From the NCBI RefSeq assembly GCF_050943825.1, contig NZ_JBMNPX010000010.1:7771-71770 (forward strand): DNA of 64,000 nt, read 5' to 3'. The notes under the pieces are model-generated. The model saw only the letters and a list, made by a program, of their open reading frames with translations, was not told where the DNA came from and did not search any database. Within the stretch, counting starts at the first letter, position 1. Each line of letters begins with the position of its first letter. The translations under genes were made by a program, and so were the position numbers. The DNA is from Pseudoflavonifractor sp. Its GTDB lineage: Bacteria; Bacillota; Clostridia; Oscillospirales; Oscillospiraceae. Of this stretch, positions 19,311 through 34,577 are shown piece after piece.

Positions 19311-19386
<76 letters not shown>

Positions 19387-19581: not shown

Positions 19582-19899
19582 TTACTTTTTTGCGGCTTTA
19601 TAAAACATATAAACTGCACACCCGCCGCCAATCGCAAATGGCCCGATGGCTCCCACAATTTTAAGAAGTATGAGACCAATCGTAAGATGAAGGACTTCCT
19701 TCAGAGCGTCTAAAACCACATATGACGATAATGACAGCCCGCCGCAAACGAGGCTCAACGTGAGTCTGCCGCACATTCTTTCTACTTTGCGTGTTTCCTT
19801 TTTAGAAAGTGCCTGTAATATATGATTGACAAGTACAAAACACGCAATGAGAGAAACCGCACAAATACCCAACAGCACAAAAGACAATGCATCTGTCAT
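19582..19899 (-). CDS. Small AT-rich membrane protein (about 3 TM), unknown function
   Basis: RBS GAGGGG, own promoter, three hydrophobic segments, locally AT-rich DNA. Confidence 0.75.
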   Translation of the reverse strand: MTDALSFVLLGICAVSLIACFVLVNHILQALSKKETRKVERMCGRLTLSLVCGGLSLSSYVVLDALKEVLHLTIGLILLKIVGAIGPFAIGGGCAVYMFYKAAKK

Positions 19900-20078: not shown

Positions 20079-20120
20079 TAAAACGAAGGAGGGTACCGCA
20101 AGGTACCCTCCTTCGTTTTT
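20079..20120 (-). terminator. Terminator of the MATE-STAND operon
   Basis: aaaacgaaggagggtacc-GCAA-ggtaccctccttcgtttt, 18-bp stem. Confidence 0.8.
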
Positions 20121-20174: not shown

Positions 20175-21128
20175 CTACTGCCTTGCCTTTTTCTTTTCTC
20201 CATCCAGGGTTTTGAAATGCAGAAATCGCAATTCCGGGTGTCCGCAGTGGAGCAGGAATGTGTCCATGAGGCGGCAGGTGCGGCGGAGCCACGCGTGGCA
20301 GCCGGAGGGGGGCTTTCCCGCGCACTCCTGCTGATACCGCTCCAACAGGCTCAGAACCAGAAAATCCGTCCGCTCGCCAAAACGGCTCTCATGCCGCTCA
20401 TCCAGGGGGAGATATCCCAGCGTTGTCAGGCCCCGGTCGAGGATGGACGGAGAGACAAACGGGGCGGACAGCAAAAACAGGTGGCGCAGCATTGTTTTTC
20501 TGGGGATTTCACCCAGCAGAAAGCGAAGCCGCTGAAACTCGTTGACGTAGTTTGCGCTGTTGAGATGGCTGGTCTCATCCAATTTGTTTTTGGTGTCCAC
20601 ATACTGTCTGGCGTCCTGGACATAGCAGTGGCGCAGATATTCCCCGGATTTTTCCCAGGGAATATTCAGACATTCCAGCTCCAGCGGATGAACCATGGCC
20701 AGATATTGGGCCTCCAAATCCTCCAGATACCGCCTCCGCCGGCAGTAGACCGGGTCTTCATAATCCGCAGCATCAAACACCATGTCGGCGCTGTCGTAGT
20801 ACCCCTTCAGGAGGAAGGCTTCATCTGCCGGATTCAGCGCCAGCGCCCGCCCCAGCGCCAGACACTGCTCCCGGCTCTGGGGCTTGTGCCGTCCGGTGCG
20901 CCAGTATCGCACGGCCAGCTGCTCCGTGCTCTTCTCCGGCTGCCGTCCGTACAGCCGCTCAAATACCAGCCGGTCCAGCGCGCCCCGTCCGCTTAAGCTT
21001 TGAGACCGGGCCACATCCTCAAATCGTTCCCGAATCCATGCGGTCTCACGGGACTCCCACCCGGGCTCGGTGCAGAGGGCCAGAGTGTTCTCCAGCCAGT
21101 CCAGGGTTTCCTTTTGGTACTGTTCCAT
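20175..21128 (-). CDS. Hypothetical helical protein with two HTH-like segments
   Basis: RBS GGAGG. VRYWRTGRHKPQSREQCLALGRAL resembles XRE helix-3/4. A second related segment is PRKTMLRHLF...LGYLPL. Confidence 0.75.
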   Translation of the reverse strand: MEQYQKETLDWLENTLALCTEPGWESRETAWIRERFEDVARSQSLSGRGALDRLVFERLYGRQPEKSTEQLAVRYWRTGRHKPQSREQCLALGRALALNPADEAFLLKGYYDSADMVFDAADYEDPVYCRRRRYLEDLEAQYLAMVHPLELECLNIPWEKSGEYLRHCYVQDARQYVDTKNKLDETSHLNSANYVNEFQRLRFLLGEIPRKTMLRHLFLLSAPFVSPSILDRGLTTLGYLPLDERHESRFGERTDFLVLSLLERYQQECAGKPPSGCHAWLRRTCRLMDTFLLHCGHPELRFLHFKTLDGEKKKARQ

Positions 21129-21143
21129 CCTGATCCTCCCGGC

Positions 21144-23252
21144 TCAAAGCGCCGCTTCCTTCTCGCGGAGCGTCTCATACCACTGGGTCTGGCGGGGATA
21201 GTACTGGGTCAGCTTGTGGAGAATCTGACGGTACAGCGTCCGGGCAGCCTCCGCTTCTCCGGCAGCAGCCCAGGCGTCCGCCAGAACCTCCTGGCAGCTC
21301 AGGGTCTCCTTGGCGGCTTCTCCCCGCATGGCCTGGGTGACCTCCGTGCAGCTCCGGGCCAGCTCCATTGCCCCCGGAACCTCTCCCTGCCTGAGCAGAA
21401 TTTCAGCGCGCAGCAGGTCCAGCTCCACGCTGAAATGCCGCTGCTCCCCGAAGGGTTCCGTGCAGAAGTCCTCCCGCAGCTGACGGCACACCTCCAGCGC
21501 CTGCCGGTATTGCCTCCGGCAAGCCAACAGCTTGGCCTGCTCCAGATGGAGAAAATAGCCGGTTTTGCGGTGCGGAAGGGGGAGGTGCCCCACCAGATTC
21601 TCATACCGCCCAAAGGCCTCCAGAGCCTCCCGGCAGTAGGCCAATGCCGAAACATACCTGCCCTCATGGCGGTCATTGCGGCACATTTTGTGGGCCGCCT
21701 GGGCCAGCCGGTAGAAGTAGAGGGCGTTGTAGGGCCTGCACTTCCGCAGAATCTCCAGAGCCTTTTGATACCAGGCCTTGGCGCTGGAAAACTGCATGCT
21801 GTTGTGGTACACCGCCCCCACCCGCATGGCAATGCTGCCGGTGACCTGATGCACCGCCCCGTAATGCTCCTCACAGCTTTGGTAGAGCCGGAGCATGTAT
21901 TGCAGGGACTCCCCGAAATATCCTCCGATCCATAAAACGGTGGCGAAGGTATCGTAGCTGTCGGCCAGCCAGGCACGGGGCGTGGGCCAGGCGTCCAGCA
22001 GTGAAAAGCAGACGGGCACGGCTTTGACCACCTCACCATAGGGTTCGTCCCAGATGTGGGCGTATTCCTCCTGCATCCCCCGGAGAAATCGGCGGCAGTT
22101 CTCCGGGGCAGGGGGGTAGCAGCGCCGGACGCTCTCCGCAATCACCGGATGGAGCCCGCACAGGGATTGTCCGTCCTGCTGCCGCACCCACACCAGCGAC
22201 ATGGCGCAAAGACGCTCCAGTGCGGCCGCTTTCAGCCCTGACGCCCGGAGAAAGCGCCCGGTCTCCATGCCGCCCGCCGGCAGCAGCGCCAGACAGCGGA
22301 GGACGCGGATATCGGTCTGGCTCATCAGGGGCCTGCGGATAAAGTATCGGGTCAGGTCGTCCTTTCCGGCGCCCAGCGCCGGCGGCTGGTCCGGGCTGCA
22401 CAGGGCCAGACGCATCAGAAGGGGATTGCCCTGCACTCCGGCGCAGAATGCGTCCAGACGCTGGATTTCGCCGGGGGTCAGAGGGCTCTGGCCGCAGCAG
22501 CGGTAAAAATCCCGCCAGTACCTCCGGTCCAGCGGGGGCAGGCGGTGCACCGCCACCGGCCAGTCCGCTCCGCACACCCGCCCGGTCATCAGCAGGGCGC
22601 AGGGCAGCTGCCACAGCAGGGGGAAAACCCGGTCCTTCAGCTGGTTCACATCGTCCAGAATCAGCAGCACCCGCCGGTTTTCCAAAAGCCCGGTGAACAC
22701 CTTCCACTTTTTCTTGAAGTACTGGGCCTGATCCGCGTACTGCCCGGAATTCCAGGACAGGTTCCGGATGTTCAGCTCTCCGTCGTCGCAGAAGGTGTGG
22801 GTCAGGTCCTGTCGGACATTCAGCCACACAACGGTGCCGTAGGCCCCGGCAAACCGGGCGGCGTAAGCACGGGCCAGGGTGGTCTTGCCCAGACCGCCCA
22901 TGCCGTGAAGCAGCACCCGGCCGGGCCCGCTTCCGCCGCTCAGCTGCCGGTGGATGGCCGCCAGCTCCTCCTCACGGCCCACAAATTGTTCCGGCGGAAG
23001 AATGGGCCTGGGGAAGAGCGCATGCTCATGGGTCCTCCGATAGGCGGCGTACTGCTCCTCCCAGAGTGCCACGGCCCGCTGCTGTTCTTCCGGACCGGAA
23101 AACCCCGGAGGTGTATCGGGATACCGGCTTTGCAGCACGATTTGGTTCCAGCTCCAAATCAGCTCCCGGTCCAGCCCCAGGGCCAACCCCTCCTGAGGCG
23201 TCAGCAGCTGCTCCGTGCTCAGGCCGTCCGGCCGGACCGTATCAGCGTGCAT
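21144..23252 (-). CDS. STAND (NB-ARC-like) P-loop NTPase with C-terminal TPR region
   Basis: FVGREEEL, Walker A GMGGLGKTT, Walker B LLILDDV, GNPLLM (GxP), followed by TPR-like helical repeats. RBS GGAGG. Confidence 0.88.
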   Translation of the reverse strand: MHADTVRPDGLSTEQLLTPQEGLALGLDRELIWSWNQIVLQSRYPDTPPGFSGPEEQQRAVALWEEQYAAYRRTHEHALFPRPILPPEQFVGREEELAAIHRQLSGGSGPGRVLLHGMGGLGKTTLARAYAARFAGAYGTVVWLNVRQDLTHTFCDDGELNIRNLSWNSGQYADQAQYFKKKWKVFTGLLENRRVLLILDDVNQLKDRVFPLLWQLPCALLMTGRVCGADWPVAVHRLPPLDRRYWRDFYRCCGQSPLTPGEIQRLDAFCAGVQGNPLLMRLALCSPDQPPALGAGKDDLTRYFIRRPLMSQTDIRVLRCLALLPAGGMETGRFLRASGLKAAALERLCAMSLVWVRQQDGQSLCGLHPVIAESVRRCYPPAPENCRRFLRGMQEEYAHIWDEPYGEVVKAVPVCFSLLDAWPTPRAWLADSYDTFATVLWIGGYFGESLQYMLRLYQSCEEHYGAVHQVTGSIAMRVGAVYHNSMQFSSAKAWYQKALEILRKCRPYNALYFYRLAQAAHKMCRNDRHEGRYVSALAYCREALEAFGRYENLVGHLPLPHRKTGYFLHLEQAKLLACRRQYRQALEVCRQLREDFCTEPFGEQRHFSVELDLLRAEILLRQGEVPGAMELARSCTEVTQAMRGEAAKETLSCQEVLADAWAAAGEAEAARTLYRQILHKLTQYYPRQTQWYETLREKEAAL

Positions 23253-24570
23253 TCCAATCGCCTCCTCTCAGGGTACGCCGAAACAACGCGCTGCCCAGAA
23301 GGGCGGAGGCCCCCCAGCTCAGCACCACGCCCAGCGCTCCGCCCATATAGCCGAAGGCGGGAATGAGAAGCCAGGCGGCAGCGGCGCTGCACAGCACCTC
23401 CATACCGCCCAGGGCCACCACGCCGCCATACCGACCCATGGCCTGCAGGGCGTTGCGGTAGAGAATGGCGAAGCTCACCGGAAACACCAGCACGGTGAGG
23501 CGGAGCCACAAGAGGGATGCCTCTGTCACTTCGGAAGGCTGTCCCGGTCCGGCCACCAGCCCCACAAGGGGGCGACCCGCAATCCAGACCAGGGCTGCCG
23601 CTGCCAGGCCCAGAATCACAAAGAGCCGGACCAACCGCCGGTGGCAGGCCAGGATATTTTCCCGGTTGCCCGCACCCACATTCTGGCCGGTGATCACGCC
23701 GGAGGCGGTGCCCAGCTCCCCCTGGGGCGCGATGAGGACCGCCTGCAGGGAGAGGGCGATGGCCTGGGCGGCAATCAGCCGGGGAGACAGGGTGTTCACC
23801 GCCCGCTGGAGCACCAGGGCGCCCAACGCGCTGAGGAAGAAGTAGACGGTTTTGGCGCCGCCGTTTTGCAGCAGACCCCGCCACACCGTACCCGGAATTT
23901 CACGGGGACCCACAGTCCGCAGCAGCCGGGGCCGGTTCCGCCGGACGTACCGCAGCAAAAGCAGGGCCAGCAGGGCGTTGGTCAGCACCGTGGCCAGCGC
24001 CGCCCAGGCCACGCCGCCCTTCCACACGCCGATGAACAGTACCACCAGCGCCGTGTTGGTCACCGCGCCCAGGACGGCCAGTGCGCTGAAATAGCCCGTG
24101 TCTCCCACCGCCTGGAGGAGCACCATCAGCAGCAGCTTGGCGGCGGTGGCCCCCGCTCCGGCAAAGGAGAGAATCAGGTAGGGCGCCGCCGCGGGGCGCA
24201 GCTGGGGCGGGAGATTGCCCAGGGCCATCAGGCCATTTACCCCCAGCGCGGCCAGCAGGCCCAGGCCGGAGAGAATCAGCGTATACCGCAGGGCGGCGGA
24301 GAAGGCGGCGGGGAGACGTTTGGGGTCCCCGCTGCCTACGGCCGTGCCCAGGCAGATGCCGAACCCGTAAAACATCCCGGCCAGCACCTTGCCCCGAATG
24401 GTCAGCAGGCCGCCGCAGGCCCCCATGACCGCCAGAGCCGTATCGTCCAGGGCATAGCTGACCACGGCGGTGTTGATCAGGCCGTAGACCTGCTGGAAGA
24501 GCTCCGCCGCCATCAGCGGGATCAGGAACCGGGCAAGGGCCTTCGGGCAACAGGCTCCGGTAAAATCCAC
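23242..24570 (-). CDS. MATE-family efflux transporter
   Basis: QQVYGLINTAVV, GDT...N, GVAWAALAT and GQNVGAGN MATE motifs, about 12 TM. GTG start; overlaps the STAND start by 11 nt. Confidence 0.88.
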   Translation of the reverse strand: MDFTGACCPKALARFLIPLMAAELFQQVYGLINTAVVSYALDDTALAVMGACGGLLTIRGKVLAGMFYGFGICLGTAVGSGDPKRLPAAFSAALRYTLILSGLGLLAALGVNGLMALGNLPPQLRPAAAPYLILSFAGAGATAAKLLLMVLLQAVGDTGYFSALAVLGAVTNTALVVLFIGVWKGGVAWAALATVLTNALLALLLLRYVRRNRPRLLRTVGPREIPGTVWRGLLQNGGAKTVYFFLSALGALVLQRAVNTLSPRLIAAQAIALSLQAVLIAPQGELGTASGVITGQNVGAGNRENILACHRRLVRLFVILGLAAAALVWIAGRPLVGLVAGPGQPSEVTEASLLWLRLTVLVFPVSFAILYRNALQAMGRYGGVVALGGMEVLCSAAAAWLLIPAFGYMGGALGVVLSWGASALLGSALFRRTLRGGDWNAR

Positions 24571-24593: not shown

Positions 24594-24693
24594 AACGTAC
24601 CATGTACAAAGCAATCTGTCAACGAAGTAAGTTTTAACCAAGTGGGATTTACGGAATATTTTTTGCTTTGGTTAAAACTTACATCATTGACAG
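24594..24693. promoter_or_regulatory. Divergent promoter region built as a 26-bp inverted repeat with an outward TTGACA in each arm
   Basis: Arms 24616-24641 and 24668-24693 match at 24 of 26 positions. The leftward promoter is TTGACA, 17 bp, TG-n-TACGTT. Confidence 0.75.
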
Positions 24694-24834: not shown

Positions 24835-25809
24835 ATGAAATACGGGAAGAAAATTCTGTCTCTTCTGCTGGCCGCCGTGCTGGCGGCCGGTGTGCTGGCG
24901 ACGGGTGCGTTTGCCGGCGAGATTGACACGGACACGGTGGATTTGGGGAATGTGAAGTTCATCGGCGTCTACGCCCAGGAGGAGGAGACCCTGCAGCTCA
25001 CCTACACGGACTACGAGAGCGGGGAGACCGTCAAGGAAGAGATCACGGCCACGGTCTACACCCTGTTCAACACCGCCGACACCGTGGTGTACACGCACAG
25101 CGCCGTGAGCAAGTTTATGCCCTACCGTCTGCAGGCCGACGGCTCCTACAAGCAGGAGGGGCTGGGCGTTCAGGGCGGCTTCAAGTGGACTGTAAAGACC
25201 TTTGCCGATCGCCCCGCTGAGCTCTATCGTCTCACGCCGGACCGGGACGCGGCCGACGTGTTTTTCCGGGTGAAGGACCTGACCACTGGGGGCGGCGTCA
25301 AATTTTCCGACGTGCCCGACGGCGCGTGGTATGCGGACACCGTGAAGTGGGCGGTGGAGAAGGGGATCACCACCGGCACCAGCGCCACCACCTTCTCTCC
25401 GGACACCCCCTGCACCACCGCCGAGATTATCACCTTCTTCTGGCGTGCGGCCGGTTCCCCGGCGTCCGGCGCGGAGCTCACCTACAAGGACGTGCCTGAC
25501 GACGCGTGGTACCGTGACGCCGCGGTGTGGGCCTGCGAGAAGGGCCTGGTGGAGGGCGACACCTTCGGCGGAGACACCCCCTGCACCCGTCTGAGCACCG
25601 TAATCTACCTGTGGACCCTGGAGGGCAAGCCCAGACACGGCTCGAACCACTTCCAGGATGTGGAGATCAACGGGCCGTACCACTATCCCGTGGGCTGGGC
25701 CGTGGCGGAGGAAATCACCACCGGTACCAGCGACACCACCTTCTCCCCGGACCTGGTGTGCAGCCGTGCGCAGATTGTGACCTTCCTGTACCGGTACATG
25801 ATGCGGTAA
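24835..25809 (+). CDS. Secreted protein with three C-terminal SLH domains
   Basis: Signal peptide MKYGKKILSLLL; FSDVPDGAWY, GITTGTS..TFSPD and CSRAQIVTFL SLH motifs. Confidence 0.9.
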   Translation: MKYGKKILSLLLAAVLAAGVLATGAFAGEIDTDTVDLGNVKFIGVYAQEEETLQLTYTDYESGETVKEEITATVYTLFNTADTVVYTHSAVSKFMPYRLQADGSYKQEGLGVQGGFKWTVKTFADRPAELYRLTPDRDAADVFFRVKDLTTGGGVKFSDVPDGAWYADTVKWAVEKGITTGTSATTFSPDTPCTTAEIITFFWRAAGSPASGAELTYKDVPDDAWYRDAAVWACEKGLVEGDTFGGDTPCTRLSTVIYLWTLEGKPRHGSNHFQDVEINGPYHYPVGWAVAEEITTGTSDTTFSPDLVCSRAQIVTFLYRYMMR

Positions 25810-25889: not shown

Positions 25890-28800
25890 ATGAGACGAAC
25901 ACGGACAAGGCTTTGGGCCCTGCTGCTGAGCGTGAGCCTGCTGCTGAGCCTGCTGCCCGCCCAAGCGCTGGCGGCGGCGCTGCCGGAAGCCGGGCAGACA
26001 GTGTTCCTGCCGGTCATTGAGGAGGGGGAGGAGGCCCCTGCGCCCCAGGGCGCGGGCGGAATCTCCGCCTTTGGCCTGGTGGAAAATCAGGAAGGCTCCG
26101 AGTATGTCTATGCGGGCAGCGCGGTTATTTCCTACAACGGAAGAGCCTTCATCAAAACCCCTGACGGTGAATCCTATGTGACGGAGAAGCCGGAATCCAA
26201 CGGCATTCTTCAGCTGCTGGATGAGGAGGGCACGGCCGTGGCCTCCAGCAGGGCGCTCTCCAGCTATTACTCCGATTATGAGACGAAGCATTATTACATT
26301 TCCGGAGCGCGTTTTGATAACGCTGCGGAGCTGCCGGCGGGAAGCTACACCCTCCAGCTGGTGGCCGGAAATGTGACCTACCCCTGCACCGGCACCATGG
26401 AGATTGTGGGCGACGGGGCGCTGCTGATTTCCGATGCATACCTCGACAAGCTGTATACCGGCGCCCAGGAGCTTGATCTCCGCCTGACGGTCTATGGATT
26501 CGAGCGGGAGGAGGAGCTGGAGGGCCTGACCTTCTCCCTCATGGACGGAGACACCGTGGTGGCCCAGTCCACGGGCACATACCGGGATATCAGTGCCAAT
26601 TACGAGAGCAGCCAATGGTATCTGTGTGCCCAGATGAAGGTGGCCGAGGGGCAGAGCATCCAGAGTGGCCCCAGATACAGCCTGGCCATCCGCTACACCG
26701 GCGATAAGGTGATGGTGGACGGCGTAGGAGCCGCATCCAGCAGCGCCTCCGCCCCCAGGGCCTCCGTTGAGGGCTTCCGGGTTCTGGACCCCCAGACGGC
26801 CCGTGTGGCGGTGGAGCTGTCCTGTCTGACGGCGGGTACCGGCTATCGCGTCGCGGTCAGCAGCGACTCCCAGGGGACCAATCTGTACGCCGACCAGACC
26901 TTCACGGCGGAAAGCGACACCCAGACGGTGGAGCTGCAGCTGACAACCGGCGGCATGGTGGTGCCCATGACCGGCTACGAGAGCCTTTTGTGGGTAAAGG
27001 TCTATGCAGACGGGGATGAGTACGGCAGCACACCGCAAAGCTTCACAAATCCCTACGCCAACCTCCGCCAGGAGACGGTCTATTTTTATCCCTACGCCAT
27101 GAAACCCACCGCCAGGGACCTGGCGTTCCGGCTGGAGTACTACAACGGCTGCTCCTTCTACAAGGGGAGCGGGGACGTGCTGGAGCTGCGGGACAGCAAC
27201 GGAACCGTACTGGGCCGCTGTGAGGCGCTGACGCAGACCGTGTCAAATGGCGAACAGGGCGTCATCACCGGCACCCTGCATATCACCGGCAGCCTGGCCG
27301 TGCGGAGAACCTATTATCTCTATCTCAACGGCGTCCAGTTCAATACGGTCTACACGACGGATGAACTGTGGCTCATGAATACGATTCCTATGGTAGACTA
27401 TGGTGCTCACACCATATGGACCAACCTGGGTGAGTTCCCCATTTACACGGAGGTCCTCAATTCCGGCGGTACCGGCCGGTTCGTCTTCAAAAACGGCGAT
27501 ACCGACGTGCTGACCAGCCCGATCATCACCGGCCAGCCCAGCGGAGTTCAGGACATGCTGGTCTATGCCCACACCTTTACCGCCGGGGACTTCGGGAAAC
27601 TGACGCCCGGCACGGCCTATACCCTTGTGTTCCGGGACGGCAGCGGTACCGAGGCTCCTATCAACGACAAGGACTTCACCTATACGGCGGACAAGGTGCC
27701 CCTGGACCTGAGCAACAGCAGTCATGCATATTTTGAATGGCATGCGCTGAAGCCGGGTAAGGATACCGTGGCGGGCCGGCTCTATGTAAACAGCAGATCC
27801 TTCAGGAACATCGAAAGAGCCGATCTGGAGGCGCTCAAGTCCATCACCCTCTCCAACGGCACGGACACCTTTGCCGTCGCAAGCTATACCGCAGAGTGGA
27901 ACAGCGGAAGCTATTAGTACGATCTGACCCTCACCCTGGACAAGCCGGTCACCGCCGGAACCTATACGGCGTATCTCGACGGCAGGCAGCTTGCGGGGGG
28001 CATTTCCGTCAAACCAAATGAGACGAGCAGTCCGCGCCTGTATGGATCGGACAGTGGGGCCAACGGGTATCTGATGGGCTCCTGTCTGCCCGTGGACGCC
28101 GAGTACACCGGCAAGCTGTACAGCGGCTACACCTGCCTGACTCCGGAGGGCTTCCCCATGACGCTCCAGGGCGAGGCGGACGGCAGCACCCAGTACCTGT
28201 ACTTCAACAAGGGCGTCTTTGCCGATCGTCCCGCGGGAAGCTATGAGCTGCGGGTCTATATGGACGGCAAGGTCCTGGGCAGGAGTACCGTCACCGTGCA
28301 GGCGGAGACCAGCCCCATCATTACCCTGAACGATGAGGATGACGCCTGGGGGGATGACAGCGGCGATCCCGTCATGCACGCCGAGGAGGTGCGGATCGAG
28401 GGCGTCAACATGGGCGCGTACGGCTATCTGCGCTGGGCCGAGACCCGGGAGGCTCTGGCGGAAGAGCGCTTCCAACCCTATTTTGCAAACCGCTACTACG
28501 CACATACCTTTGAGGGTGAGGACGGCCCCCGCACGCTGTATGTGGAGCTTTCCAAGAGCGGAAAGAGCGGCGACAGCGAGAATCTGACCTACACCTTCAA
28601 CCTGTGGCTGTGTATTGCCAGGGACTACGATGTCCGGGTGCCCGAGCGCGTCCAGGGCGTTCAGTCCGCGGACAGCCAGTACACCATCACCGCCACCACC
28701 TCTCTGCCGGCTACCCGGCTGTGGGTGTCCTTCTACGACGCCGACGGCAGGCATGCCAGCCAGCAGATGGGCTATGTGGGTCCCACTGAGGACGGGCGGT

Positions 28801-31800
28801 ACGAATTCAGCCTGACCTTCAACCCCAGGTCCGACTTCTGGGATTCCCAGTCCTATGGCGGCAGCTTTTACTATGAGAACACCCAGTCCATCCGGGTGTT
28901 TGCCGTCGACATGAGCAACGAATACCAAGATAACGAAGCGTACCGGGGCGTGGTTATGGGCGAGCCGGTGGAGCGGATTCTGGTGTTCGGCAATCCGGAC
29001 AATGTGATTCTGCCCCAGTTTGCCAATGGCGGCGTCCTGATCAACCAGACCAGCTATACGCTCTTTGGCTATGCCTCGCCCAACGGCAGCGTCACAATCA
29101 CCGAGCAGGGCGAGACGCTGGCCACGGCGCAGACCAACGAGTACGGCTATTTCAGCGCAAGCCTGACCGGCCTTTCTGAAGGGTCCCACACCCTGACCGT
29201 GGCCGACGACAGCGGAGCCGTGGGCAGCAGGACGGTCTATCTGACGGTGGATACCACCCCGCCCACGGTCAGCGATGTGACCTTCACCTTCCTGGAGGAC
29301 AATGCCGCCGTGCTCCACTGGACGTGCAGCGACAAGGATGTGGACTATTTCCAGATCTACAAGAATGACGTTCCTCTGGGCAGGGCAGAGGCCGGCTCCA
29401 CCTCCTACAATGTGGCGGCGTCGGCGGACGACGGCAACCGCTTTACCATTGAGGCGGTGGACCTGGCGGGCAACAAGTCCCAGAAGACCGTCTCCACTGC
29501 CGACCAGGAGCCGCCCACCGCGCCGGAGTCCCTGACGGTCACCGGCCGCACCACCACCACCGTGACCCTGAGCTGGACGGCAGGTACCGATAATATGGGT
29601 GTGGCGGGCTACAATGTCCTGATGAACGGCGAACTGGTGGAGCAGCTGACCGGCGACAATACCACTTATACGGTCACCGGTCTGCAGCATAAAACGAAAT
29701 ACACCTTTACCGTGCAGACCCGGGACAAGGCGGGCAACACCTCGGTCAACTCTCCCGCCGCAGAGACCAGCACCGCGGAGCTGAGCATTGCCGACGATCT
29801 CCAGAGCAGCTACACGGTCCGGGGAAGCGGCGCTGTGATGTCCATTCCTCTGACGGTGACCGCGGTCTCCGACGTGGAGGAATACACGCCCACCCTGCAG
29901 CAGGTGACCCTTCAGTATCAGACCGGCGGCGAGACCCCCGGTATCTGGCAGAACGGCGACCTGACGGTGGATTACAGCGGCGACCGGGCCACGGTCACAT
30001 GGGCCGCGCCGGTGGACGCGGACCATCTCCCCATACAGTACAATGTCCGCATGAGTATCACCGACAGCGAGGGCGCCCATGCCATGGGCCAGACCAGAAC
30101 GGTGAATCTCGTGGAGGGCCGCGTGACCTTTACGGTGGAGGACAGCAATACCATCGCCCCCATCTCCGGCGCCGCGGTGGCCCTCTATCAGGACGGCGCG
30201 CTGAAGGCATCGGCCACCACGGACCAGCGGGGCGTGGCCAAGCTGGATGTGCCCGACGGTACTTACAGCGTAATGGTTCTGGCCGACGGCTATCAGCCCC
30301 GCCGGATTCCCAATCTGGCCATCTCGGAGAACAAAAAGACCTTCACCATCCCCATGAGCACCGAGGATATTCTCCAGGTGGAGACCACCGTCAAGGAGAT
30401 GACCTATGACGACATGGTGGCGGCCGGCATCGACCCCAACGCCCCCGGCAACAGCCATGTGTTTGAGAGCACGGTGATTCTGGACTTTGTGGAGGTGAAA
30501 TACTACTACAACGACGACGGCCAGGTGGTCAAGGGCGACCCGGCTCCCTTTGAGGACGGCGTCCTCTATCCCGTGGCCAAGGATATCTTCCTGATTGTAC
30601 CCTCCCGGGTCACCTGGCTCAAGGAGATGTTCGACGTCCAGCTGCTGGTGACCAACACCTCCGCCATGGAGACTGTGGAGAACTGCACCGCCCAGCTGAA
30701 CCTGCCTGCCGGCCTGTCCCTGGCCGACATGATGGAGGGACAGCAGTCCGCCACGGTGGAGCTGGGCGACATCGCCCCCTCCGGCGCGGCCGTCCACCAC
30801 TGGTATGTGCGGGGCGATACCGAAGGCGACTACACCCTGAGCGGAACCGTCACCGGCACCCGTACCTCCGAGGACGTTGAGGAGCCCATGGCGGTTGGCT
30901 TCACCACCAGAGACCCCATCAGCGTTCTGGCCGGCGACGCCATGAAGATGACCATCACGGCGGAAAGGACTGCCGTCACCGGTCAGCCCTACCGGATGCG
31001 CTATGAACTGCGCAATGTGTCCGGCAAGTCCCTCTACAACGTGAACTTTGAGGTGTTCGGCGGTACCTTCCGCCAGGCCTATACCATCGACGAGGTCCTG
31101 GCCTCCTACGACCTGAAGGGCCCCTTCCAGCCGGACGCCGGTACCGGTGCGCTGAAAAACGGCTTTACCCTCAGCGCCCAGGAGTTCAAACCCACCGAGG
31201 TTCTGGCCGGTACCTTTACCATCACCTTTGCCGAAGGACTGGACCTGTCCGACGGCATCGAGTACATGCTCAAGCGGGTGTTCCTGTTCACCGGCGCGGG
31301 CAGCACCACGGAGATTCCCGTGGAAATCAAACTGGTGGACAGCCTGGATGACGCCCATACCCATGAGTACGACAAGGGCGTTGTGACCAAGGAGGCCACC
31401 TGTACGGAAAAGGGCGTCATGACCTACACCTGTACGGTGGAAGGCTGCAAGGACACCCTGACTGTTGAGATTCCCGCTCTGGGCCACGATATGGGGGAGT
31501 GGACCATCACCAAGGAGGCCGCCTGTACGGAGACCGGCACCGCCGAGAGCAAGTGCACCAGATGCGATTACACCGAATCCATGACCCTGAGCGTGCTGGG
31601 CCACAGCTTCTCCGAGGATTGGACAACGGATGTGGAGCCCACCTGTACCGAGGCCGGTTCCAAGTCCCACCACTGCACCCGCTGTGACGCCAAGACCGAC
31701 GTGACCGAAATCCCTGCCACCGGACACACCTCCACGGAGAGTGACTGCACCAAGGACGATATCTGCTCTGTCTGTCACCAGGTGATCCGCAAGGCCGGTC

Positions 31801-34577
31801 AGCACGTCTGGGGTGAGCCGGACGTCACCAAGGAGGCCACCTGTACCGAGGCAGGCTCCCAGACGCTCACCTGTACCAGCTGCGGCGCCCAGGAGATTCA
31901 GGAGATTCCCGCCCTGAACCACGACTATCAGGATACTGTCACCCAGCCCACCTGCACCGAGCAGGGCTATACCACCCATACCTGTTCCCGCTGTGATGAC
32001 AGCTATGTGGACGCCTATGTAGACCTTCTGGGCCACGACTGGGGCGAGTGGGAGGTCACCAAGCCCGCCACCGAAACCGAGGACGGCTCCCAGACCCGCA
32101 CCTGCAAGCGCTGCGGCGCCACCGAGACCGAGACCATCTCCAAGTGGCCCAAGCAGGAGCTTTGGATTCCTGCGTCCTCCGTCACAAGAACCTACGGTTC
32201 GGAGGATGTGTACAACGAGGCCAAGAACCTGTCTGAGAGCGGCGGCGCGCTGACCTATACCAGCGCCGATCCCGGCGTGGCGGTGGTGGATGCAGCCAGC
32301 GGCAGGGTCACCATCAAGGGCGCCGGTACCACCACCATCACCGTCACGGCGGCCACTGTGCCCGGCAAATACGCCCAGACCTCCGTCAGCTACGAGCTGA
32401 TCATCAACAAGGCACCGCTCACCATCCGTGCCGACGATGCCGCCGTGGTCTATGGCCAGGCCGCCCCTGCCTTTGGCTGGACAGCTGAAGGCTGGCAGTA
32501 TGAGGAAGATGAGAGTGTCCTCACCGGCCAGGCCGTATATGACTGCGGCTATCAGGCCCTGGATGCTGTGGGCGCGTATCCCATCGCAGTTTCCGGCCTG
32601 ACGTCCAAAAACTACGACATTACCTTTGAAAACGGCACGCTGACGGTCTCCAGGGCGGAAGACTACACCATCACCCTGGGCAATCTGGAGCAGCTGGCGG
32701 GCCATACCTCGGCTGTCACCGCTGCCGTTACCCCCTATGACAACACGGCCGTGATTTCCGTGGAGTACCTGGTGGACGAGGTGTGGACCGATACCGTTCC
32801 CTCTGAGGCCGGCACCTACTCCGTCCGGGCGGCTCTGACCGCAAGCAGCAACCTGGCGGCAGATCCCGCGGACTACACCGAGGGCACACTGACGGTCAAG
32901 CAGGGCGTGACCGTGGACACCGGCGACGGAACGGAAAACGTGGACGTGGCGGTGGATGTGGAGGACGGAACCGCTCATATCACCATTCCGGAAGACGATA
33001 TTGCCAAGATTGCCGGGAATGCCAACGGAACGGTGTCCATCGACCTGGGCGGCGCATCCGGTGTGGATGAGCTGGTGCTGCCCGGCAGCCTGGTCAGCGA
33101 GCTGAGCAAGAGCGAAAACGCCGACGGTCTGACCGTCTCCACCGAGGATGCCTCCATCACCATGAGCGATTCTGTTCTGGACACGGTGGCCGATGCGATC
33201 ACCAGCGGAGAGGATACCATTTCCGTGGTCCTCAAGAGCGTGGACGAAGCGGACCTGACCGAGGCCCAGAAAGAGGCGCTGGAGAGCATCCCCAATGAGG
33301 CCAAGGTGGTGGACGTCTCCATCGTTGTCACCCATCCCGACGGAAGCCGGGATGTGCTCCATGAGCTGGGCGGCGACGTGACCATCACCGTCCCCTATGA
33401 CCAGGTGCCCGAGATTGTGAACGGCAAGTATGTGGTGGCCTGCCACGTCTCCGACAACGGCGTCATCACCTATCTGTTCGCCACCTGCGATGAAGAAAAC
33501 CGCACCATCACCTTCACCACCAACCACCTGTCCAACTATGCCGTCTTTGTCAGCGAGAAACCCGCTGTGATTGTCACGGACGGCAGTGGCTCCGGCCTGT
33601 ATGAGGTGGGCGCCACCGTCACCATCACCGCCGGCAGCAAGAGCGGCTATACCTTCAGCGGCTGGACGGTCGTCTCCGGCGATGTGACCCTTGCCGATGC
33701 CAACGCGGCCGAGACCACCTTCACCATGCCCGCCGGTCAGGTGGAGGTGAAGGCCAATTACAGCGTAAACTCTTCCGGCGGCACTGTAACGCCCAGCTAT
33801 TCCGTCTCCGTGGCAGATACCGAAAACGGAACTGTCACCGCACAGCCCCAGAGAGCCGCCAAGGGTGCTGTCGTGACCCTGACCGTGAAGCCGGACCAGG
33901 GTTACAAGCTGGACACGCTGACCGTTACCGACCAGAGCGGCAGAGAAATTCCTGTCGCGGAGCAGGACGGCAAGTACACCTTTACCATGCCCGCCTCCAA
34001 GGTTACGGTCAAGGCCACCTTCATCAAGAGCGAGCAGACCGGGGAGACGGTATTTACCGATGTCCCTGCCGGCGCTTACTATGCGGAGGCCGTGAAGTGG
34101 GCCGTCGCCCAGGGCGTCACCACCGGCACCGGCGCGGCCACATTCAGCCCCGATATGGCCTGCACCCGTGCTCAGGTGGTCACCTTCCTGTGGCGCGCTG
34201 CCGGCAGCCCCGTGGAGGACGATGGGGACATGAGCTTCACCGATGTGCCCGCAGATGCTTACTATACCCAGGCTGTCCGCTGGGCGGTTGCCCAGGGCAT
34301 CACCACCGGCACCGGCGCTGCCACGTTCAGCCCCGACGCGGTCTGCACCCGCGCACAGATCGCCGTGTTCCTGTACCGGGCAAACGGTTCGAAAGCGCCG
34401 GATACCAGGGACAACCCGTTCAGCGACGTGGCGGAGGGCAGCTACTACTATGACGCGGTGCTGTGGGCGGTGGAGAACGGCGTCACCACCGGCACCGGCG
34501 CGGCCGCGTTCAGCCCCGATGTGGTCTGCACCCGCGCACAGATTGTCACCTTCCTGTTCCGGGCGATGAGCAAGTAA
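25890..34577 (+). pseudogene. Giant (~2895-codon) SLH-anchored surface protein/adhesin interrupted by one in-frame TAG at 27915-27917
   Basis: ORFs 25527-27917 and 28074-34577 share a frame. The 52 codons between them are open and protein-like (YDLTLTLDKPVTAGTY...). Domains: signal peptide, Ig-like, FnIII (PPTAPESL...LSW), carboxypeptidase-regulatory-like, Cys-rich CTExG repeats, MBG-like, InlB-B-like and three SLH. Confidence 0.85.

Follow-up and report, generated by a model that had tools for sequence, protein, structure and literature searches.

The DNA analysed here is a 64,000-nucleotide stretch of the genome of a Pseudoflavonifractor sp. (contig NZ_JBMNPX010000010.1, positions 7,771 to 71,770 of the forward strand), the whole of which is referred to below as the window. 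Between positions 20175 and 24570 its minus strand carries an operon encoding a MATE transporter, a STAND NTPase and a protein of 317 amino acids (aa) from a family without annotation, here named X317. The linkage and natural fusion of X317 with STAND proteins, together with a promoter box conserved at their loci, argue at a probability of roughly 0.6 for a two-polypeptide transcription activator of the STAND type, in which the STAND protein would be the switch and X317 the output acting on the box, with envelope and surface genes as the targets.

The operon and its proteins

The genes of the operon and its terminator are as follows.

23242-24570, minus strand: MATE transporter gene, 442 aa from a GTG at 24570; first gene of the operon; Pfam MatE
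21144-23252, minus strand: STAND NTPase gene, 702 aa; N-terminal arm of ~90 aa, NB-ARC NOD and C-terminal TPR sensor
20175-21128, minus strand: X317 gene, 317 aa; predicted all-helical protein; family without annotation
20080-20115, minus strand: intrinsic terminator, read from the sequence; 14-bp GC-rich stem, 4-nt loop and T-run (cgaaggagggtacc-ttgc-ggtaccctccttcg-tttt)

The three co-directional genes were verified at the coordinates and with the gene calls of the first-pass annotation, which had described them as coupled. They are tightly packed in a unit closed by the terminator. The GTG of the MATE gene is preceded by the ribosome-binding site AAGGGGGGG; the STAND start codon (ATG at 23252), preceded by GAGAGGAGG, overlaps the MATE stop codon (23244-23242) by 11 nt (ATGcacgcTGA); and X317 starts 15 nt past the STAND stop codon, behind GGGAGGA. 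The MATE protein was matched in two stretches by Pfam PF01554 (MatE) at 74.2 bits (cut-off 24.9), and its score of 95.6 with NCBIfam TIGR00797 lies under the cut-off of 147.4 and thus indicates a divergent subfamily. The MATE protein of the system at locus L001 aligns with that of the window at 32.5% and 204 bits, and four other MATE paralogues in the genome reach at most 25% and 89 bits. Judged from these comparisons, the in-operon MATE belongs to a system-specific clade.

In the STAND protein, Pfam recognised NB-ARC at residues 94-207 (E=5.5e-11), with AAA_16 also matching, and TPR repeats across residues 429-682 (TPR_12 at 435-504, TPR_10, TPR_1 and TPR_19). Alignment of 17 STAND sequences demonstrated that the Walker A motif GMGGLGKT (G117xGGxGK123) and the Walker B motif LLILDD (D200) are invariant, as are the sensor-1 residues T223/R225, the GxP motif G275..L278 (GNPLL) and the MHD-like pair H368-P369 (LHP). 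The intact Walker A/B and GxP motifs and the TPR sensor ascribed to this protein at first reading were thus borne out, and by its sequence the 702-aa protein possesses all tested features of the NB-ARC (AP-ATPase) clade of STAND proteins, i.e. the P-loop, the sensor-1, GxP and MHD-like positions and the repeat sensor. Residues 1 to ~90 contain no domain recognisable by Pfam, including no DNA-binding domain, in agreement with the N-terminus of about 90 aa, free of any recognisable effector or DNA-binding domain, that had been described before. An arm motif in this part, ELxWx6Lx7TPxGF, is invariant in the same alignment.

X317 was matched neither in Pfam, NCBIfam, PADLOC and PHROGs nor by any PDB sequence, a sequence-profile search of the PDB included. 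About 115 homologues were found in gut Clostridia, none of them named beyond 'hypothetical', and a scan limited to one genome per species yielded 80 loci. The nearest relatives are those of Pseudoflavonifractor capillosus ATCC 29799 (93%; locus L020) and Flavonifractor sp. An92 (80%), and the remaining carriers are mostly Lachnospiraceae and Oscillospiraceae. X317 is single-copy in the genome of the window and present in 2 of 301 genomes of its order. The best-conserved motifs of the family are IRYWRTGRHxPxxREQC at residues 73-89 and GEIPRKTMLRHL at residues 206-217, and the invariant Arg and Trp residues cluster in a putative recognition helix.

The AlphaFold model of X317 (pLDDT 91.3, pTM 0.89) consists of 16 helices, and the full-length model had no significant global fold match in the PDB or BFVD by Foldseek. 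Local matches of its N-terminal half are almost exclusively XRE-type DNA-binding domains (TM 0.55-0.66 on the target, root mean square deviation 3-5 Å, probability at most 0.9, E at least 0.9), the five N-terminal helices resembling P22 c2, C.AhdI and CI-type domains of the XRE (Cro/C1) group. In hhalign comparisons with 30 XRE domains, residues 76-102 (WRTGRHKPQSREQCLALGRALALNPAD) fell in register with XRE positions 32-57 (P ~1e-3, probability 10-20% over 26 columns), so that the pattern WxxGxxxP...L..L..aL coincides with XRE helices 3-5. The putative turn of X317 is, however, longer than that of XRE domains, and none of 41 family members was matched by the helix-turn-helix (HTH) families HTH_3, HTH_19 or HTH_31 of Pfam at E<=10. 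The N-terminal half (about residues 27-110) may be considered weakly XRE-like on the basis of the model. The C-terminal half, folded alone (pLDDT 80), gave neither an HTH match nor a TPR-like match in Foldseek, and hhalign detected no internal duplication between the two halves (E 0.64). The two XRE-like segments reported by the first-pass annotation are therefore half right: both motifs exist and the first segment is weakly XRE-like, but the second has no support for an HTH fold, and for this reason the description of X317 as a tandem HTH protein fails and was rejected. The C-terminal half appears in the model to be a novel fold that would plausibly serve as a partner or dimerisation interface.

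Proteins of 360 aa carrying the first X317 motif only (LRKVxNWLxDRHxPxDRExxFRxxFAL; profile E about 1e-5..1e-6), together with a PRKLLLLLY-like second motif, were observed at L012:1351-2436 and L014:1318-2400. They belong to no Pfam family, come from genomes of the family and order of the window and, as far as their motifs tell, may represent a sister family of X317.

Linkage of X317 to STAND genes and natural fusions

The co-directional neighbours of X317 were classified by tblastn. Across the 80 loci X317 adjoins a homologous STAND gene, in the same direction, in seven gene orders: X317-STAND (22 loci), MATE-X317-STAND (11 loci), X317-MATE-STAND (8 loci), MATE-STAND-X317 as in the window (4 loci), X317-STAND-MATE (4 loci), STAND-X317 (3 loci) and STAND-MATE-X317 (1 locus). 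Among the 43 fully visible loci, for which 3.7 kb or more is available on either side, STAND is present in 34 and STAND together with MATE in 20, and nine contain neither. MATE was never found without STAND at an X317 locus, and it is missing from 14 of the 34 fully visible STAND-type loci. Since the linkage of X317 and STAND survives such reshuffling, it points to function and not to inherited synteny. As for the conservation of the neighbourhood of all three genes, the X317-STAND pair is kept, but MATE does not behave as a core member.

In an exhaustive search of representative sequences, two proteins, P0175 (987 aa) and P0187 (999 aa), proved to consist of X317 followed by a full STAND protein, and two more, P0183 and P0212, are partial forms of such fusions. 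The two lineages, P0175/P0183 and P0187/P0212, are 27% identical to each other, and both full-length fusions are uninterrupted open reading frames (ORFs) on independent contigs. They are collinear with residues 27-702 of the STAND protein of the window, the N-terminal arm included, at 28-29% identity, and X317 therefore holds the position that the effector classically occupies in STAND proteins. Among the sequence evidence these natural fusions provide the strongest support for a 'split STAND' reading. The proposed role of the 317-aa protein, encoded separately, as output partner of an effector-less STAND protein has thus gained on two sides: the pair is kept through the shuffling of gene order, and X317 is fused to STAND in four distinct proteins from two lineages.

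The promoter box and the genes behind it

The intergenic region between the operon and the divergently oriented surface-protein genes of the window is 264 bp long and holds an inverted repeat of 78 bp in all, with 26-nt arms (24616-24641 and 24668-24693) that are 92% complementary and a 26-nt spacer. Either arm, read outward, has the sequence TTGGTTAAAACTTAC(T/A)TC(G/A)TTGACAG. The arms are conserved at the related loci L018-L020, where the spacer and the flanks diverge. The features on both sides of the repeat are listed below.

24594-24641, minus strand: operon promoter ahead of MATE; box TTGGTTAAAACTTAC, -35 TTGACA (24622-24617), 17-nt spacer, extended -10 TGgTACGTT (24602-24594)
24668-24693, plus strand: mirror box and -35 (TTGGTTAAAACTTACATCATTGACAG), facing the divergent surface-protein genes
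24835-25809, plus strand: SLH-domain surface protein gene, 324 aa; three Pfam SLH matches, E=1.4e-21
25890-34577, plus strand: giant SLH-anchored surface-protein gene, with a TAG interruption at 27915-27917 in this genome

GTTAAAnTTnAC, the element that is conserved, adjoins a -35 of the sigma-A type and an extended -10, and the same element was found upstream of distant X317 loci. A position matrix detected 109 sites at 18 bits or more in 1.32 Mb of loci, and the consensus of 94 unique sites, aAaTGTTAAAnTTnACnTtaTTGnc-N12-aatgtTAatnT, comprises the box, the -35 TTG, a 17-nt spacer and the extended -10. The box itself is a 16-bp pseudo-palindrome with the consensus ATGTTAAAnTTnACnT, centred near -47; it contains GTTAAAAC and TTAC and occurs in the variants GGTTAAAAC and TGTTAAAGT. 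As many as 76 of the 97 sites scoring at least 20 bits (78%) are situated within 400 nt of the systems, a zone that makes up 5.6% of what was scanned. A search of six whole genomes for the exact pattern gave 12 matches, eight of them inside X317 loci, against 0 for the reversed control. A box may stand upstream of the first gene of a system or, leading into cargo genes, directly past its last gene, and divergent pairs of boxes are frequent. Boxes also lie ahead of the operon for the fused form (in L016), of the intermediate relatives L006 and L021, and of sigma-type loci that lack STAND. A simple inverted-repeat search upstream of all loci was noisy and became of use only after the shared box had been recognised. 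An alternative-sigma promoter of the TcdR/BotR type was considered and rejected, the spacing of 24 nt from TTTAC to the -10 being unfit and a canonical TTG-N17-TAnnnT being present.

Within the 3.3-Mb genome of the window, no further copy of the 15-mer TTGGTTAAAACTTAC was found at two or fewer mismatches. The matrix trained on other genomes scored the operon box at 15.1 bits and the mirror copy at 17.3 bits, both among the top three of the five matches in this genome. The third of these, at C12:77553 outside the window (17.9 bits; AATTGTTAAAATAAAAAGGGTTGCAGG with the -10 TGATATACT), lies upstream of a gene for a secreted trypsin-like protease; the TTnAC half of the box is missing there, and the match is probably due to chance. 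Additional boxes in this genome were discarded, and only the two arms stand out.

Site-to-gene assignment relied on a crude ORF caller, which gave 96 box sites with a downstream ORF. The first ORF is X317 at 32 sites, MATE at seven, the a145 gene of an accessory trio at five, a sigma-like protein at three and a protein resembling the 327-aa neighbour in L005 at two. The other 47 sites are followed mainly by genes for lipoproteins, secreted proteins and membrane proteins, and include radical SAM and DUF5685 pairs as well as Hsp70-like, TPR/Sel1-like and SPFH plus zinc-ribbon proteins. Target families that recur whether or not they are linked to a system are MATE, SPFH plus zinc ribbon, and a small membrane protein. 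This is illustrated by a Lachnoclostridium metagenome-assembled genome with a single X317 copy, in which four unlinked boxes, L128-L131 (G301:C1:51125, C2:109497, C7:30841 and C14:30186), precede genes for a second system-like MATE, a protein with SPFH/Band-7 plus a double zinc ribbon, a small membrane protein whose family is also met as a box target at other loci, and an IPP-isomerase-like Nudix protein. The four boxes suggest, on positional grounds, a dispersed regulon.

Two of these groups also recur beside the systems. Genes for radical SAM (PF04055) and DUF5685 proteins are box-preceded neighbours in at least three loci (L027:9903-..., L035:14486-..., L041:6168 and 14318). The trio, which is conserved and encodes proteins of ~145, ~340 and ~500 aa (a145, a340 and a500, the last with a faint TPR), stands before or after the system in several Lachnospiraceae and is itself box-preceded (L001:14630-16933 and L016:2674-5728; also L024, L032, L058 and L072); it is absent from the genome of the window.

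The presence of MATE in only 20 of the 43 fully visible loci, taken with the unlinked but box-preceded MATE gene, suggests that MATE is best taken as a target of the regulon and not as a part of the switch, and the inclusion of MATE in the core of a 'triad' was not sustained. These data also bear on the possibility that the MATE transporter exports a small molecule or peptide which is sensed again by the TPR domain, X317 being the regulator, so that the operon would be an autoinduction circuit in the manner of RRNPP regulators instead of a stress-responsive efflux regulon. MATE does belong to a system-specific clade and lies inside an operon that would be autoregulated, and the promoter box would provide positive feedback; moreover, TPR sensors bind peptides in RRNPP regulators, and these receptors (Rgg, ComR, PrgX), which X317 resembles in size and all-helical build, are its top global Foldseek matches, though not significant ones. 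The global TM-scores to them are nevertheless below 0.2 with E of 0.3 or more, X317 has no TPR match, and its C-terminal half is not TPR-like. As MATE is also lacking at many STAND-type loci and recurs, unlinked, as a target beside SPFH and membrane proteins, and no conserved small peptide ORF was noticed, such a circuit seems quite improbable.

On the other side of the repeat, the giant surface-protein gene is the conserved divergent neighbour of the operon in all four close relatives, with 78-95% identity in L018-L020 by tblastn. It is directly divergent from the box and the MATE operon in L018 and L019, and in the window and L020 the 324-aa SLH gene is inserted between them; the latter gene has a 97% identical copy in P. 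capillosus (L020) and is absent from L018 and L019. From its position, the 324-aa SLH gene is the probable first target of the mirrored promoter. The coupling to the divergent surface-protein genes that had been proposed at first is supported by both the mirrored promoter box and the conserved position of the giant gene. The in-frame TAG at 27915-27917 is specific to the genome of the window, the frame being uninterrupted in L018, L019 and L020, and therefore represents either a recent nonsense mutation or a sequencing error.

The character of the targets is also relevant to a role in defence, which had been put forward as an alternative and in which an Avs-like anti-phage STAND system would employ X317 as an effector acting in trans and MATE as an accessory. 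Like Avs proteins, the system is built on a STAND NTPase whose C-terminal part is a repeat sensor, and its distribution is patchy, as seen from the rarity of X317 in the order of the window; its NB-ARC/TPR protein lacks a fused effector, it adjoins a tRNA-Ala integration hot spot, and its variable neighbouring cargo (Hsp70-like, SPFH, radical SAM) is reminiscent of conflict systems. However, PADLOC gave only a weak P-loop match of the STAND protein to TRIP13 (E=0.007) and nothing for X317 or MATE, X317 is without a PHROGs match, and no cell-killing effector domain is found: X317 is compact and helical, its local matches are XRE-like, and it has no nuclease, TIR, Sir2 (Pfam) or pore-forming signature. 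A conserved promoter box with recurrent envelope targets fits gene regulation and not abortive infection, and the defence interpretation is consequently regarded as very unlikely.

A candidate box reader and its relation to known STAND regulators

X317 loci without STAND are informative about the reader of the box. At 10-12 of the 16 such loci examined, X317 neighbours a gene for a 590-700-aa protein in which ECF-type Sigma70_r2/r4 is combined with a single transmembrane helix and a large extracytoplasmic domain of no known family (L005:8959-11052 on the minus strand; also L055, L056, L057, L064, L077, L079, L082, L084 and L088), and the promoter box is found here as well. X317 alone is shared by all three kinds of box-bearing locus (STAND-type, fused and sigma-type) and, considering also its effector position in the fusions, is therefore the best candidate for the box reader.

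The same neighbourhood could be explained if X317, instead of binding DNA, served as an adaptor between proteins, for instance as a co-activator or anti-factor in contact with sigma or RNA polymerase. It would then link the STAND or sigma-like protein with RNA polymerase, and the reader of the box would be either the sigma-like partner or a different factor. The recurrence of the sigma-like membrane protein, the weak HTH evidence for X317 and one low-scoring Foldseek match (rank 12), which is a chain of a transcription initiation complex, are compatible with this. Yet STAND-type loci have the same box without such a sigma factor, the genome of the window elsewhere yields only generic extracytoplasmic function (ECF) sigma matches of at most 29% identity, and the promoters possess an ordinary sigma-A -35 and extended -10; with no other protein shared by all box-bearing loci, an adaptor role is judged unlikely.

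According to the two-polypeptide activator reading, the 702-aa NB-ARC/TPR protein would be a ligand- and ATP-gated switch and X317 its detachable output module, recognising the box near -47 that abuts the -35 of sigma-A-type promoters. A cytoplasmic cue would trigger the TPR sensor, upon which the STAND protein would release X317 or assemble it on the box, and transcription would be activated. In the present genome the regulon would consist of the MATE-STAND-X317 operon, under positive autoregulation, and the divergent SLH and giant surface-protein genes, because the only two boxes of the genome mirror each other in the one inverted repeat; MATE would be a regulated output outside the switch.

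Several observations weigh against this scheme. X317 occurs without STAND in nine of the 43 fully visible loci and so does not strictly need it. At 33 of 85 loci there is no site at 20 bits or more, some of these being truncated contigs or having diverged boxes, as in the clade of the window. Neither by sequence nor by fold does X317 significantly match an HTH family, the best Foldseek E being 0.3-0.9 and the hhalign probability against XRE domains as low as given above, and the fold of its C-terminal half matches nothing known. Activation rather than repression is deduced solely from the location of the box upstream of the -35. Finally, the box could be read by another factor, X317 being then merely a co-regulated gene or a protein adaptor.

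The alternative pairing of X317 with the membrane-anchored sigma-like protein suggests a modular regulatory principle. In its broadest form, X317 would be a new family of portable promoter-recognition modules serving two unrelated sensor chassis, namely the cytoplasmic NB-ARC/TPR STAND protein, split or fused, and the membrane-anchored ECF-sigma-like protein with its large extracytoplasmic domain. Through one conserved box, a variable set of envelope genes (MATE efflux, SPFH, lipoproteins and S-layer-anchored adhesins) would then be driven in gut Clostridia, possibly in answer to host- or bile-derived membrane-active compounds. This generalisation is tentative and somewhat doubtful; if true, it would amount to an undescribed signal-transduction architecture.

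GutR of Bacillus subtilis and MalT of Escherichia coli are STAND switches, gated by ligand and ATP, each of which turns on a small local regulon. GutR, a protein from Firmicutes, has a NOD and TPRs behind an N-terminal HTH. In both regulators a single polypeptide includes a DNA-binding domain of a recognisable HTH family (LuxR-type in MalT), whereas switch and putative output are split in the window. Pfam and PDB sequence searches found no relationship of X317 to the DNA-binding domains of GutR or MalT. A fused DNA-binding domain, as in AfsR, GutR and MalT, is absent from the STAND protein of the window, the putative output being fused only in the relatives P0175 and P0187. The operator beside the -35 that characterises regulators of this type has its putative counterpart in the conserved box at the system promoters.

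The closest comparison can be made with AfsR of Streptomyces coelicolor, a SARP-NOD-TPR activator with the SARP domain at the N-terminus, in which ATP binding relieves the inhibition of the output by NOD and TPR (PMC10936776). Like the system of the window, AfsR combines an NB-ARC-type NOD with a TPR sensor, and its binding site adjoins or overlaps the -35 of a promoter used by the housekeeping sigma factor, as the box abuts the -35; its domain order, with an N-terminal output, is that of the natural X317-STAND fusions. In contrast to AfsR, the putative output is a separate polypeptide in most X317 genomes, and X317, all-helical in its model and without a Pfam family, has a fold unrelated to that of SARP (OmpR-type winged helix plus BTA). 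Moreover, the box is a pseudo-palindrome, whereas the AfsR site consists of direct repeats, and the host is a gut Clostridium, not an actinomycete.

No description of this module was found in a full-text literature search. The Nature 2026 survey of STAND proteins is silent on MATE or HTH partners, and GutR and MalT occur in PMC13581612 only in its reference list. A split variant of the STAND transcription activators, with an output family matching none described, would be new. Transcription activators of the STAND type are represented by a few known cases, each a single polypeptide (MalT, AfsR and GutR), and here the switch and the candidate output are separate genes. The sharply defined cis-element allows the putative regulon, comprising an efflux pump, an SPFH protein, lipoproteins and giant surface proteins, to be predicted from sequence, and it offers a testable handle on the regulation of envelope and surface proteins in abundant but little-studied gut anaerobes. 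The compact set of sensor, activator and promoter could also be tried as a genetic tool in Clostridia.

Downstream of the operon, the minus strand of the window carries at 19582-19899 a gene for a predicted membrane protein of 105 aa, situated between the operon terminator and the tRNA-Ala gene (19311-19386) and provided with its own promoter, TTGCCA-17-TATACT (20003-19975).

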